Source of the DNA: an uncultured Pseudomonadota bacterium
Lineage (GTDB): Bacteria; Vulcanimicrobiota; Vulcanimicrobiia; Eremiobacterales; Eremiobacteraceae
Direction: 5' to 3'
NCBI GenBank assembly: GCA_963736005.1
Contig: CAVTNB010000001.1
Coordinates: 800,001-864,000 of the forward strand
Length of the DNA stretch: 64,000 bases
How positions within the stretch are numbered: position 1 is the stretch's first letter; every line of letters begins with the position of its first letter. Made by a program: the position numbers and the translations under genes. The notes under the pieces were generated by a model that did no database searches, was not told where the DNA came from, and saw nothing but the letters and a program-made list of their open reading frames with translations. Of this stretch, positions 1,883-20,032 are shown one piece after another.

Positions 1883-2571
1883 TTTATCATTTTTGCAACG
1901 ATACGTTTGGCAGACCGTTTCCGGCGGTGTCAGCTGCGTTTGCGAAAGCGAGTGGGCTGCGGATCGTTCGGGTGTTGGCTGAGAAGCCGCCCGAATCTTC
2001 GCTTGCTTCGATGTCGAAAGCGATTCGCAGACCCGCAAGTCGCGCGCTTCGACGCGTTCAGCGGATGTTAACTAGAGCTCCCAGTCATGGTGAGGATTTG
2101 CCGACTCTCTATGTAACTGACGTCAACGCTCAAAGTTTCCGGCGATATATCAAAAAGGGCGACGCCGGCGTCATCACGGGCTTCAATCAGATCTTTAGCG
2201 CGGAGACGATCGAACGCTTCAGCTCGTTCGTGAATCTGCATCCCTCAATATTGCCGCTCTACCGCGGACCGGTTCCGACCTACTGGTGCATTCGCAATCG
2301 CGAACGCTTGACTGGATTCACCTTGCATAAGGTGACTCCCAAGATTGACGTAGGCGAAGCGCTGTATCAGGAAGTTGTTCCCATTGAGGGCGAGACCGAT
2401 GTGCTCGGTCTCGAGCTGAAGATCGCTCGCGCTGCGCTGCCGATGTTCTCGCGTTACTTAGAGCACCTTGCAACCGGCATGGAATGGGTGCCTCAATACG
2501 TTGATGCGTTCACCGTATACCAAACGCATCAGAACTACGCGACGTTTCCGGAGCTAGAATCTTTGGGATGA
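1876..2571 (+). CDS. Formyltransferase family protein
   Basis: NLHPSILPLYRG and TGFTLHKV..KIDVG motifs; overlaps the upstream ORF. Confidence 0.8.
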   Translation: MVIYHFCNDTFGRPFPAVSAAFAKASGLRIVRVLAEKPPESSLASMSKAIRRPASRALRRVQRMLTRAPSHGEDLPTLYVTDVNAQSFRRYIKKGDAGVITGFNQIFSAETIERFSSFVNLHPSILPLYRGPVPTYWCIRNRERLTGFTLHKVTPKIDVGEALYQEVVPIEGETDVLGLELKIARAALPMFSRYLEHLATGMEWVPQYVDAFTVYQTHQNYATFPELESLG

Positions 2572-2612
2572 CCGGGACTCGAACCCGGACGCCCTTTCGG
2601 GCGACAGATTTT

Positions 2613-2861
2613 CGCACCACTATGGCTTTCGCCACCACGTAAAGCGGACCTAAAGGTCCGCTGCTACATTGTTTGTGGTCCGGACTGTGCCTTGACCATA
2701 TCGCTTTGCCGCGACGTAGGCCGCGCCCATCCAGTCTCTACGCCTTCTTTCGTGCGTGCATCGAAAGCTTGGTTCGGCGTTGTCACGCCCCGCGGGCAAG
2801 AGAGTTCGCCGAGTTTGAGCGCATCCCGAAGGCGGTTTCCCAATCCTTCGGCTCCAAACGG
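2613..2861 (-). ncRNA. Group I self-splicing intron (IC3-like), 249 nt, no homing-endonuclease ORF
   Basis: Inserted after U34; P1 CUU|C-CGUUU-GGAG with a U-G splice-site pair; P/Q/R/S-like cores CTCAAACTCGGCGAA, AACGCCGAACCAAG, GCGTAGAGACTGGATGG, AAGGCACAGTCC; terminal G. Confidence 0.9.
2643..2667 (-). repeat. REP-like palindrome, family B, inside the intron
   Basis: GTAG-CAGCGGACC-TTTA-GGTCCGCT, identical to 23981-24005 and 35526-35550. Confidence 0.85.
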
Positions 2862-2951
2862 AAGTCTGTCGTGTCTGCCGATTTCACCATCATCCCACGA
2901 TCGGCGTCGATATCGTTGGCTTTCGCCGTGTCAAACGCCTCGGTGACTGAA

Positions 2952-3134
2952 CTAGCGGCGTCCAGCCTCATCGTAGCTTCGTGCCATCGGGTATAATCTC
3001 GCAAATCCAGCAATCGAGAGCACACCGAAGATGACAGCATCCCATGGGAAACCGCTATCACCGATGCTCAGGGACATCCAGAACACCGTGATCGCGATGT
3101 TGAGCATGCAGCCGATCCACCAAAGCACAACCAT
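2952..3134 (-). CDS. Small hypothetical membrane protein (60 aa)
   Basis: GAGGTGG RBS upstream; two hydrophobic segments. Confidence 0.5.
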   Translation of the reverse strand: MVVLWWIGCMLNIAITVFWMSLSIGDSGFPWDAVIFGVLSIAGFARLYPMARSYDEAGRR

Positions 3135-3165
3135 AACAATTCCACCTCAGTGGATTATCGGCATT

Positions 3166-3281
3166 TGGGCGACTTGACAGTCGCCCACTACGTTGGCGCG
3201 GGCGGCGGGAATGGGGCGATTTTCCAATCGCCCCCTACAGGGCGCGGACGGCATTTGGGCGATTTTCCAATCGCCCGCTAC
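3166..3281 (-). repeat. Cluster of three family-A REPs (3166-3191, 3213-3238, 3257-3281)
   Basis: Each is GTAG-N-GGGCGA..TCGCCC on the minus strand. Confidence 0.88.
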
Positions 3282-5401
3282 ACGACTGGGGCGAGGACGA
3301 GGAGCTCGTTTACCCCTTCGTCCAGCACTTGCTGGGCGAAGCTTTTTGGCCCCAGCCATCGCGGCTTCGTGCGAACCCCCTCCACAACAAACGTTGCTCC
3401 TGGGTGCGCCGCACCCATTCGCGCCAAGCCCCTCGCGGGGTTGGTGTCGGAATCGACCACCCAACGCCCATCGAGCATCCGCGTTGTTTCGCTCAACGTC
3501 TTGAGCGCAGCGCTTTGCGCGGCTTGCGCCGACGAGCTCACATGCACTACCGTAAAATCCGCATTGAGACGCTTGGCAAGCCGCGCCGCACGCTGCACGA
3601 GCACCGTGTCGCGCTCCCGAGCTGCGACCCCGAGCACAATTTCGCGGACGACATGCGGCACGCGCGTCGTTGCGCGCGCCCTCAGTGCTTCTCGCAAGGC
3701 GAGCTCGCGCAGCGCTGTGAGATTCTCGGTCCGAAAGAACGAACTGAGCGCTGCTTCAATCCGTTCCTTTGGATAAATTTTCCCCGCGCGGAGGCGATCG
3801 CGCAGCGTCTGGGCGCTGGCGTCGATGAGAACGACGTCGTCTGCCAGCTCCAAGATGCCATCCGGCATCGTCTCGCGTACCGTTACGCCCGTGAGCCGGC
3901 GCACGATGTCATTGAGACCTTCGAGATGTTGAACGTTGAGCGTAGTCAGCACCGAGATCCCCGACCTCAGGACGCTGAGAACGTCTTCATAGCGCTTGGG
4001 AAATTTGCTGCCGGGGGCGTTGGTGTGCGCAAGCTCGTCGATGAGGGCAACCTGTGGGCGGCGCTTAAGCAGCGCTTCGAGATCGAGCTCTGAATAGCGC
4101 ATCCCACCACTGACGATCTCTAATCTCGGTAACGTTTCCAGGCCTTCAAGTTTCCGGGTCGTATCGACACGCCCATGTGTCTCGACAAATGCAATGACGA
4201 CGTCGACACCTTCGCTTTTCAATTGGTGTGCCTGGTCGAGCATCGCATAGGTCTTGCCGCATCCGGCCGCCGCGCCCAGATAGACGGTGAGGCGACCGTA
4301 ACCCACGCGCATCCGATCGCCAGCCGTGCGCGCGTACGGATGCTGGCCAAAATCGTACGGTCCTTCTCGCTCGACGGGTTCGACGAGCCTCGAGGCGACG
4401 AACACATCGCGATCGATAGGGAGCTTCAGCAATTCGCTCGATACCCTGCCTTTCGGCAGCGCGACAAACGAAGCTGCGAGGTCGCGAAGTTGTGGTCTTG
4501 CAAAATCAAACGTCGAGTTCGACACGACGTGCGCGCCAACGGACGTGGCGACTCGCGCAACACTCTCTTCGCCGAAGCCGGGCGCTGGCAACACGGCGAG
4601 ATCGAGATTGAAGGCGTCCGCAAACGCGCCGACCCGGGCAAGAAACGCTTCAGTATTGAAGCCCGGGAACAAGAGCGCGAGCGCCGTTGACATGCGAGCG
4701 GCGGGGAGCTCCGGCACTGTGAGGTCATCAATGGTCCGCAGCATCATCTCGCGCAATGCGCGCAACGTCTGCGGCCGAAATGGGCCTTGCAACGCGCGCT
4801 CGATATCATCTTTGCGCACGATAGCGCCCGCGTAGAGGCGCGCTTCAAGCTGCTCGCGCTCCACGTCGATGGCAATAACCTGGTCTGCCGCTTTGAGAAA
4901 CGTCAGCGGCACGATTTCCCGAATGGGGAAGCCGATGAGGGCTTCTGCCGTCGGTGCGACGGTATCGAGGTGCGCGATGTTCATCGCACCGAGCACGCTG
5001 ATGCCGGCAGCGCGCAGGGCGAGGGCGTCTTGCCAGCGCTTCGCGTGCACGGATCCGGGAAGATTCGTGTGCGCAAGCTCATCGAGCACAATAGCCTGTG
5101 GTCGCGCAGCCAGCGCGGCTTCGAAGTCAAACTCGGGGAACGTCGTCGCTCCAACTTCAACCATTCGCGGGGGGATGCGCGGCAGACCCTCGCACAGTCT
5201 CTCGAGATCCGCCCTGCCTTTTGTTTCGATCCATCCGAGCACGACGTTGGTGCCGCTCTGTTGTAACTGTCGAGCTTCGCCGATCAGCCGATACGTCTTG
5301 CCCGCTCCGGGAGCGAAGCTGACGAACACCGTGAGGCGCGCCTGGGCCCCAATCTCCTTGAGGAGCTCGGTTGGGGTGGGGCGCTGCGCACGTGCGTCCA
5401 T
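3278..5401 (-). CDS. kdpD: Soluble KdpD-like sensor with two tandem KdpD N-terminal domains and USP-like domain(s); no TM or kinase domain
   Basis: Two copies of the G.GKTY / ET.GR / DELAHTN.PGS / N..HL motif set; likely start MDARAQ at 5401 (the longer ORF is an antisense overlap with the kinase). Confidence 0.85.
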   Translation of the reverse strand: MDARAQRPTPTELLKEIGAQARLTVFVSFAPGAGKTYRLIGEARQLQQSGTNVVLGWIETKGRADLERLCEGLPRIPPRMVEVGATTFPEFDFEAALAARPQAIVLDELAHTNLPGSVHAKRWQDALALRAAGISVLGAMNIAHLDTVAPTAEALIGFPIREIVPLTFLKAADQVIAIDVEREQLEARLYAGAIVRKDDIERALQGPFRPQTLRALREMMLRTIDDLTVPELPAARMSTALALLFPGFNTEAFLARVGAFADAFNLDLAVLPAPGFGEESVARVATSVGAHVVSNSTFDFARPQLRDLAASFVALPKGRVSSELLKLPIDRDVFVASRLVEPVEREGPYDFGQHPYARTAGDRMRVGYGRLTVYLGAAAGCGKTYAMLDQAHQLKSEGVDVVIAFVETHGRVDTTRKLEGLETLPRLEIVSGGMRYSELDLEALLKRRPQVALIDELAHTNAPGSKFPKRYEDVLSVLRSGISVLTTLNVQHLEGLNDIVRRLTGVTVRETMPDGILELADDVVLIDASAQTLRDRLRAGKIYPKERIEAALSSFFRTENLTALRELALREALRARATTRVPHVVREIVLGVAARERDTVLVQRAARLAKRLNADFTVVHVSSSAQAAQSAALKTLSETTRMLDGRWVVDSDTNPARGLARMGAAHPGATFVVEGVRTKPRWLGPKSFAQQVLDEGVNELLVLAPVV

Positions 5402-20007: not shown

Positions 20008-20032
20008 GTAGCAGCGGACCTCCGGGTCCGCT
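20008..20032 (+). repeat. Family-B REP variant
   Basis: GTAG-CAGCGGACC-TCCG-GGTCCGCT. Confidence 0.8.

Follow-up and report, generated by a model that had tools for sequence, protein, structure and literature searches.

Can the intron of tRNA-Leu(UAA), the textbook ancient bacterial intron common to cyanobacteria and plastids, also be a working part of a tRNA gene in another phylum? The question is raised by a locus in a 64,000-nt stretch of DNA from an uncultured soil bacterium (contig CAVTNB010000001.1, positions 800,001–864,000; hereafter, the window), in which a tRNA-Leu(UAA) gene is interrupted by 249 nt. The results of our analysis argue for a functional Vulcanimicrobiota tRNA-Leu(UAA) gene that carries, between U34 and A35, a compact, IC3-like or Azoarcus-type group I intron without an open reading frame (ORF), and we estimate the probability of this reading at about 0.85. 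The evidence consists of sequence comparisons, from which we infer both the splicing of the intron and its autonomy. All coordinates are those of the window unless a contig is named, and all parts of the gene lie on the minus strand.

Organization of the interrupted tRNA-Leu(UAA) gene

The interrupted gene occupies positions 2564–2896, which are the exact ends proposed in the initial annotation of this DNA. Its 333-nt precursor, delimited by the intron mode of ARAGORN (ARAGORN -i), in silico splicing, and an alignment of 17 copies, contains an 84-nt mature body plus the discriminator. The 5′ exon (35 nt; 2862–2896) comprises the 5′ strand of the acceptor stem, the D arm, the 5′ strand of the anticodon stem, and C32, U33, and U34; it ends with CTT, and U34 at position 2862 is the −1 U of the 5′ splice site. 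It is followed by the 249-nt group I intron (2613–2861), which contains no ORF and has its omega G at 2613, as delimited by ARAGORN -i, the alignment, and a profile made of viral introns only. The 3′ exon (49 nt; 2564–2612) starts with AAAA and supplies A35, A36, the 3′ strand of the anticodon stem, the long variable arm, the T arm, the 3′ strand of the acceptor stem, and the discriminator A, while CCA is not encoded.

The presence of two tRNA exons and an insertion after U34 had been claimed from the sequence before, and ARAGORN with introns enabled had been suggested as a check. When run in this mode, the program called a tRNA-Leu(taa) with a 249-nt intron at gactt-intron-aaaat, and the exons spliced in silico were called as an 86-nt tRNA-Leu(taa) with a normal fold, which confirmed the claim. 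The same insertion point, between U34 and A35 of tRNA-Leu(UAA) (the class Leu.3Ug site), is given by uninterrupted relatives: in genomes G001, G004, G013, G025, G028, and G029, the gene consists of both exons fused precisely at CTT/AAAA.

Automated annotation had been expected to miss the gene and to put spurious ORFs in its place. Indeed, ARAGORN with default settings made no tRNA call across the entire window, Rfam was blind at the site, and the ORFs overlying the gene, 2673–2996 on the plus strand and 2783–3061 on the minus strand, had no match in Pfam. A scan of positions 2300–3300 revealed no promoter-like site; for terminators, the same scan gave two terminator-like sites versus 1.0 expected, which is no signal.

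Fold of the intron and covariation

The helices P1–P9 can be written on the window sequence using standard pairs exclusively. In P1 (2852–2864), the exon bases C-U-U and the first intron base are paired with the guide GGAG across a 5-nt loop. The wobble pair of this helix, U35·G43 in the numbering of the pre-tRNA (positions 2862 and 2854), is UG in 17 of 17 copies, and the fourth pair, beside U·G, covaries (CG in seven, GU in four, and AU in one). P2 (2826–2851) is a hairpin with a GAAA loop and changes on both sides in five of its nine pairs. The next segment (2743–2822) contains the 5′ strand of P3 (2817–2822), J3/4, and the P4-P5-P6 domain (2743–2812), where P5 and P6a covary and P3 and P4 are invariant or changed on one side. 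The 5′ strand of P7 with a bulged A (2732–2738), J7/3, and the 3′ strand of P3 (2723–2728) form, within 2723–2738, the P3/P7 pseudoknot core, all 12 pairs of which are kept in every one of the 17 copies. The 3′ strand of P7 (2682–2687) was located from the written structure and the pairing in these copies. Besides the bulged A, P7 has invariant G-C pairs, among which we assign the guanosine-binding pair by analogy. P8 (2694–2722) covaries in four of its five distal pairs, and its internal loop, which resembles a tetraloop receptor, is presumed to be one. In the 3′ domain (2616–2679), a P9.0-like helix (2675–2679 with 2616–2620) encloses P9a and P9; the latter is a GAAA hairpin (2622–2635) with changes on both sides in three pairs. 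The terminal G, G284 of the precursor (position 2613), is invariant in 17 precursors that were not selected for G. Thus, the P1 helix with its U-G pair, the P, Q, R, and S cores, and the terminal G that had been read from the sequence earlier are all found in the written structure.

The structure was tested on a MAFFT alignment of the window precursor and 16 full-length homologues from related genomes; such homologues were present in 16 of the 40 relatives. In these 17 sequences, 97.0% of the 1456 cells were paired, versus 34–42% when the partners were slid by 1–3 columns. Compensatory changes, on both sides of a pair, were observed in 30 of 88 pairs versus 6–16 in the slid versions, and none of 500 shuffles equalled the alignment in any of five measures. 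The compensatory changes are located in the P1 extension, P2, P5, P6a, P8, P9, and the tRNA stems, while the pairs of P3, P4, and P7, as well as U−1·G, are kept in all copies. The fold-energy z-score was −4.2. By every structural criterion tested, the feature belongs to the group I introns of tRNA anticodon loops.

Detection by covariance and profile models

The general group I model of Rfam, RF00028, was applied in one run to 17 loci. It detected five of five cyanobacterial tRNA-Leu introns at 65–74 bits, three of three viral introns at 51–63 bits, and one alphaproteobacterial intron at 40 bits; however, at E ≤ 1 it found none of the eight copies of the Vulcanimicrobiota lineage, including copies without the repeat insert described below. 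According to Williams (2020; bioRxiv 10.1101/2020.01.27.920355), none of the 12 seeds of RF00028 is bacterial, and a model of bacterial tRNA introns found 20% more introns. At the locus itself, the three weak Rfam rows at E ≤ 10 were chance matches to the T arm and hairpins.

Independent nhmmer profiles were prepared from 20 viral introns or 89 cyanobacterial introns, with the Vulcanimicrobiota lineage excluded from both. The window intron was the sole match in the 2.84-Mb genome with either of them, at 58.6 bits (E = 5.7e-16) with the viral-only profile and 14.9 bits (E = 0.0063) with the cyanobacterial-only profile. An nhmmer search of this genome for further relatives of the window intron found none. 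ARAGORN -i made 15 other "split tRNA" calls in the genome; none of them was matched by the intron profiles, and we take them as false positives.

The only two RF00028 matches of the genome are located inside a 23S rRNA gene adjoining 5S (C1:1142366-1142673 and C1:1141062-1141349; L001 and L002), with 58 and 27 bits, respectively. Thus, one, perhaps two, further group I introns are located in the large-subunit rRNA of this genome.

Host and distribution in the phylum

A 24-base lineage-neutral pattern covering the junction and the core was used for a census of species-representative genomes. In a preliminary check, the pattern detected 17 of 17 copies of the clade and 12 of 13 viral copies and found no uninterrupted gene. 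Among the 119 matches listed, an unbiased sample, 91 were Cyanobacteriota by title and 22 bore Vulcanimicrobiota or Eremiobacter names; the remaining titles were Pseudomonadota (two), Opitutus (one), Ca. Acidoferrum (one), and "uncultured bacterium" (two). The locus of a same-class relative, flanks included, showed 89% identity over 709 nt to a record of a Vulcanimicrobiota bacterium. On the basis of these similarities, we assign the host to class Vulcanimicrobiia of Vulcanimicrobiota (Eremiobacterota, WPS-2). The clusters nearest to KdpB in a protein atlas belonged mostly to Pseudomonadota and were uninformative on the host. The non-cyanobacterial host suggested in the initial annotation is thus supported by the named members of its intron clade, which are Vulcanimicrobiota/Eremiobacterota and fall outside the classical circumscription of this intron class with its cyanobacterial or plastid host.

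The distribution of the intron was studied in a phylum sample of 401 genomes, the window's genome included. BLAST was performed with the precursor of a congener as the query; matches were counted by hand, and a best E ≤ 1e-25 was taken as intron-spanning. By this count, the intron was present in 14 of 30 genomes of one family (f1) and 147 of 297 genomes of another (f2), about 161 in total, and exon-only matches were found in three genomes of f1 and 92 genomes of f2; 145 of the 401 genomes gave no match with this query. The exact pattern was found in 153 of 401 genomes, namely 13 of 29 in f1 plus the window's and 139 of 297 in f2. It was not found in any of the 74 genomes of the other 19 families, in which the exons were also without a BLAST match, and the reversed-pattern control gave zero everywhere. 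Eight genomes in these tallies are flagged as unpublished (G013, G197, G245, G251, G261, G288, G339, and G367), and three of them, G245, G339, and G367, are among the pattern-positive ones.

In two congeners, the intron-bearing gene has the same flanking genes, one formyltransferase-like and one KdpD-like, and a third congener has an uninterrupted gene adjoining the KdpD-like side. Thus, the presence and absence of the intron are alleles of one locus. Outside the genus, the flanks differ among carriers, with no conserved neighbour gene. In the assembly of the third congener (G001), two contigs were also of interest. One of them (C146:1-49; L020) begins precisely at the first base of exon 2 and continues into the formyltransferase side, and the other (C129:3718-3801; L031) has the uninterrupted gene beside the KdpD side, which suggests that the G001 sample held both intron-plus and intron-minus alleles.

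UUA decoding and proposed splicing of the intron

The gene is located on a 2.06-Mb contig of a genome of 2.84 Mb with 58.6% G+C and a completeness of 84%. This genome contains 46 uninterrupted tRNA genes, including those for Leu with anticodons CAA, CAG, GAG, and UAG; however, no second tRNA-Leu(UAA) gene was found in the 84% recovered, and the exons match nowhere else in the assembly. A tRNA-Sec(tca) gene is present as well. The TTA codon accounts for 3.5 of every 1000 codons and is present in 695 of the 875 frames with at least 400 codons, which served as a crude gene proxy. Since the only tRNA-Leu(UAA) found is the interrupted one and TTA is widespread, UUA decoding appears to depend on the removal of this intron.

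The proposed pathway would proceed as follows. The precursor would fold so that C32-U33-U34 of the exon pairs with the internal guide of the intron in P1, so that the U·G wobble marks the splice site. Bound in P7, a free guanosine would attack after U34, and the terminal G (position 2613) would then occupy the same P7 site. The freed 3′ OH of U34 would attack after the terminal G, so that CUU is joined to AAAA, the anticodon loop is made, and the intron is released. One metatranscriptome contig spans positions 2706–2868, that is, intron sequence and 7 nt of exon 1; it could be either precursor RNA or DNA carry-over.

Two other readings of the same gene were considered. According to the first, the intron is real and removed, but not autonomously, its folding or splicing requiring a protein cofactor such as a tRNA synthetase, a maturase-like protein, or a chaperone. 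The departures of this intron from the well-studied self-splicers, namely its own 3′ domain, the peripheral inserts, and its non-recognition by RF00028, would suit such a requirement, for which there is no direct support. We consider it improbable, because the intron keeps the GAAA loops L2 and L9 and the receptor-like P8 loop, which in the Azoarcus-type fold presumably provide self-contained tertiary stability. In addition, there is neither an ORF in the intron nor a conserved neighbour gene outside the genus, and the full P2–P9/P9.0 set of the self-splicing Azoarcus pre-tRNA, as given in the available part of PMC13168695, is present.

The second reading is that of a decaying relic, with the tRNA gene a pseudogene and the intron past splicing. 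It would be in line with the fact that no spliced RNA was seen in public runs stored as contigs, with a repeat inserted in the intron, and with a completeness of 84%, which may hide another tRNA-Leu(UAA). However, the exons are intact and give a normal tRNA-Leu fold, the catalytic core is invariant, and the peripheral helices keep their pairing through compensatory changes across two families. Moreover, this is the only UAA isoacceptor found in a genome with widespread TTA codons, and the repeat occupies the end of a peripheral hairpin whose length varies freely among the copies. Thus, a relic is very improbable.

Several points weigh against a functional, autonomously spliced Vulcanimicrobiota gene. 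P3, P4, and P7 are without covariation in the 17 copies, and their support consists of conservation and likeness to other lineages. The structure was drawn from the window's own sequence, which gives it an advantage over the slid controls in the share of paired cells, although the compensatory counts are unaffected. The completeness of the genome leaves room for a second, uninterrupted tRNA-Leu(UAA) gene, and the host placement is based on likeness to named metagenome-assembled genome (MAG) records rather than on a marker-gene tree. No exon-exon joint was found in four public runs; as these are stored as contigs, where an 85-nt tRNA is hardly expected, this result speaks neither for nor against splicing. 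Finally, RF00028 gave no match at the site, either at the gathering score or at E ≤ 10. The initial annotation had named such a miss as a refutation; however, this criterion is unsound, because the model finds none of the eight lineage copies while scoring their cyanobacterial and viral relatives.

Phylogeny of the intron and its possible link to phages

The introns of tRNA-Leu(UAA) from Vulcanimicrobiota and cyanobacteria are alignable over about 220 columns. A quick intron tree was built from 154 rows and 225 columns; it is unrooted, with no tRNA-Ile, -Arg, or -fMet outgroup. In a careful tree of 95 rows, 30 of the 89 cyanobacterial rows (every third) were kept. The window intron, its 16 relatives, 22 Vulcanimicrobiota rows, and the Opitutus and Acidoferrum rows (41 in all) formed one side of a branch with a length of 1.6 and a support of 100, and with 100/100 in the careful tree. 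The 89 cyanobacterial rows plus three odd labels were grouped with a support of 99, and so were 19 viral rows, while the twentieth viral row (L087) was on its own long branch. On these trees, the window intron is outside the cyanobacterial/plastid clade.

Three rows had positions at odds with their labels: Opitutus sp. (L153, on a 1.8-kb contig) and Ca. Acidoferrum sp. (L166) nested among the Vulcanimicrobiota rows, and Tatlockia sp. (L206) among cyanobacteria. Rather than transfers, these rows probably reflect mistakes in binning or labelling. One more row, L204 (Alphaproteobacteria bacterium, 869-kb contig), has a 247-nt tRNA-Leu(UAA) intron on its own long branch with an RF00028 score of 40 bits, below the cut-off, and may be a further non-cyanobacterial lineage.

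The tree also bears on whether the intron was recently acquired from a cyanobacterium or belongs to a mis-binned cyanobacterial contig. The insertion site is the classical cyanobacterial/plastid one, and some MAG labels in the census are unreliable, both of which would be compatible with such an origin. Nevertheless, the 41 lineage copies are split from the cyanobacterial rows by the long branch described above, and the cyanobacterial-only profile gave 14.9 bits versus 58.6 bits for the viral-only one. Furthermore, the gene is on a 2.06-Mb contig of a genome with 58.6% G+C, at the same locus as in two congeners, and its lineage was detected in 153 of 401 genomes of the phylum. A recent acquisition from a cyanobacterium is, therefore, contradicted by these data and is the least probable of the explanations considered.

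Within the Vulcanimicrobiota lineage, the tree was poorly resolved; however, the family labels clustered, with three changes versus a shuffled mean of 7.0. Forcing all members of a family together lowered the log-likelihood by 11.4 units for f1 and 13.0 units for f2, and neither constraint was rejected (p-values of the approximately unbiased test, p-AU, 0.069 and 0.067). The data presented here fit an intron inherited mainly vertically and lost exactly on repeated occasions, a long-standing view for the cyanobacterial intron, and may also fit its movement within the phylum. In the scheme that we propose, the lineage, widespread in two families, would mostly have been passed down together with its tRNA gene, with exact deletions removing it again and again. 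As the initial annotation had it, the copy bears on whether this intron is ancient or horizontally spread; however, on an unrooted tree it does not settle the question.

The viral introns were collected with a 16-base pattern, which in this first scan was too loose: 20 of its 119 rows hold a split tRNA-Leu by the junction rule. ARAGORN made intron-split tRNA calls in 13 of 80 viral loci taken with flanks. In the 20 viral contigs from IMG/VR, introns of 197–262 nt interrupt tRNA-Leu(UAA) at the same site, several of them within tRNA arrays with Ile and Met neighbours (L038, L053, L060, L066, L080, L081, L087, L096, L101, L105, L106, L109, and eight others). In GenBank, three unannotated "uncultured phage" records of 595–735 kb match the intron at about 77%. 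About 155 nt of the viral intron core are matched at 75% in Pelagibacter phage HTVC120P (19653–19807) under a capsid-protein annotation, and this match may mark a group I intron that interrupts the capsid gene of this phage. The review by Hausner et al. (2014; PMC3984707), which represents the older view, states that every phage intron known by then interrupted a protein-coding gene, although tRNA genes are numerous in phages.

Taken jointly, these data allow a broader reading, which is possible but rather doubtful. Vulcanimicrobiota would be a second ancient reservoir of the intron that predates the split of the two large families, phage-borne genes would have moved the intron between phyla, and the cyanobacterial/plastid intron would be one branch of a phage-linked family. 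If this were true, the standard covariance model would have hidden a substantial share of that family.

A repeat in the P9a loop

The insert in P9a of the window intron is one copy of a palindromic repeat resembling repetitive extragenic palindromic (REP) elements (2637–2670, minus strand; stem 2644–2661). The 34 nt at the tip of P9a copy the repeat, flank included, and 135 copies are present in the genome, versus about 0.15 expected from base composition. Copies are also located in the window at 20014, 23982, and 35527; the repeat has 7-bp G+C-rich arms and a loop of 3–5 nt, and 11 pairs of its 135 copies are closer than 200 nt.

In the nearest congener, whose precursor is 91% identical, a different hairpin is found at the same spot; it is a member of another repeat family, of which the window's genome has 88 copies. 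Another congener has 8 nt at the position of the insert, and a close relative in a soil run has one base in place of 37 nt here. Both repeat families look like REP-type elements of this genus. Since the repeats in P9a of the window and the congener are different, two unrelated REP-like elements have landed independently in the same loop. This suggests that the P9a loop tolerates cargo, and the repeat in the window intron would have landed harmlessly in this peripheral position. In trnL introns of Nostoc, repeat motifs are located in P6b, according to the available part of PMC4476775.

Comparison with known introns and significance

The window intron and its lineage resemble the cyanobacterial/plastid tRNA-Leu(UAA) intron (Kuhsel et al., 1990, as cited in PMC3984707) in the host gene, the site (CUU/...G/AAAA), the lack of an ORF, and the order of the helices, as well as in the patchy presence among close relatives and in the repeats in a peripheral loop (for Nostoc P6b, as far as the accessible part of PMC4476775 goes). 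The size is 207–265 nt in the Vulcanimicrobiota lineage and roughly 220–440 nt in the sampled cyanobacteria. The differences are in the phylum, in the separate long-branch clade, and in the 3′ domain and 3′ end. The Azoarcus intron is presumably similar to the window intron in sequence, in the GAAA loops on P2 and P9, and in the P8 receptor, while the Vulcanimicrobiota lineage has an extra variable P9a hairpin. As described in the part of PMC13168695 available, the Azoarcus pre-tRNA intron is also located in a tRNA anticodon loop and has a compact set of P2, P3–P9, and P9.0 without large peripheral domains, but it interrupts another tRNA at another splice position and has 205 nt versus 249 nt in the window.

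The viral introns from IMG/VR share the gene, the site, and the 3′ frame around P9.0/P9 with the window intron and are the nearest of the lineages tested by profile score; they differ in their low G+C, size of 197–262 nt, detection by RF00028 (three of three tested), and phage-like tRNA clusters. The proteobacterial "Leu.3Cg" introns (Williams, 2020) occupy the same anticodon-loop position of a leucine tRNA, also outside cyanobacteria; however, they have C at −1, which gives a Watson–Crick P1 pair, unlike the U·G found in 17 of 17 copies of the window lineage. Bacterial tRNA group I introns, including non-cyanobacterial ones, have already been surveyed in 21 settings, with counts by phylum (Williams, 2020), so the novelty claimed in the initial annotation was overstated. 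Our search of the literature found nothing joining Eremiobacterota, WPS-2, or Vulcanimicrobium with group I introns, nor with non-cyanobacterial tRNA-Leu introns, although the per-phylum counts of Williams (2020) may list the phylum.

The knowledge of how such introns work is unchanged by these results. What is worth keeping is that RF00028 is blind to a phylum-wide lineage, that the second reservoir is of this size, and that P9a carries repeat cargo. In all carriers of the lineage, the tRNA-Leu(UAA) gene escapes default tRNA finders as well as RF00028; therefore, the carrier genomes will look as if they had no UUA decoder, and tRNA-based marker or completeness counts will be off. For the intron family, the results show that the same site is occupied in a second phylum by a deep and well-separated lineage, which widens the frame in which the age and spread of this intron are considered, with phage tRNA genes as a possible vector.

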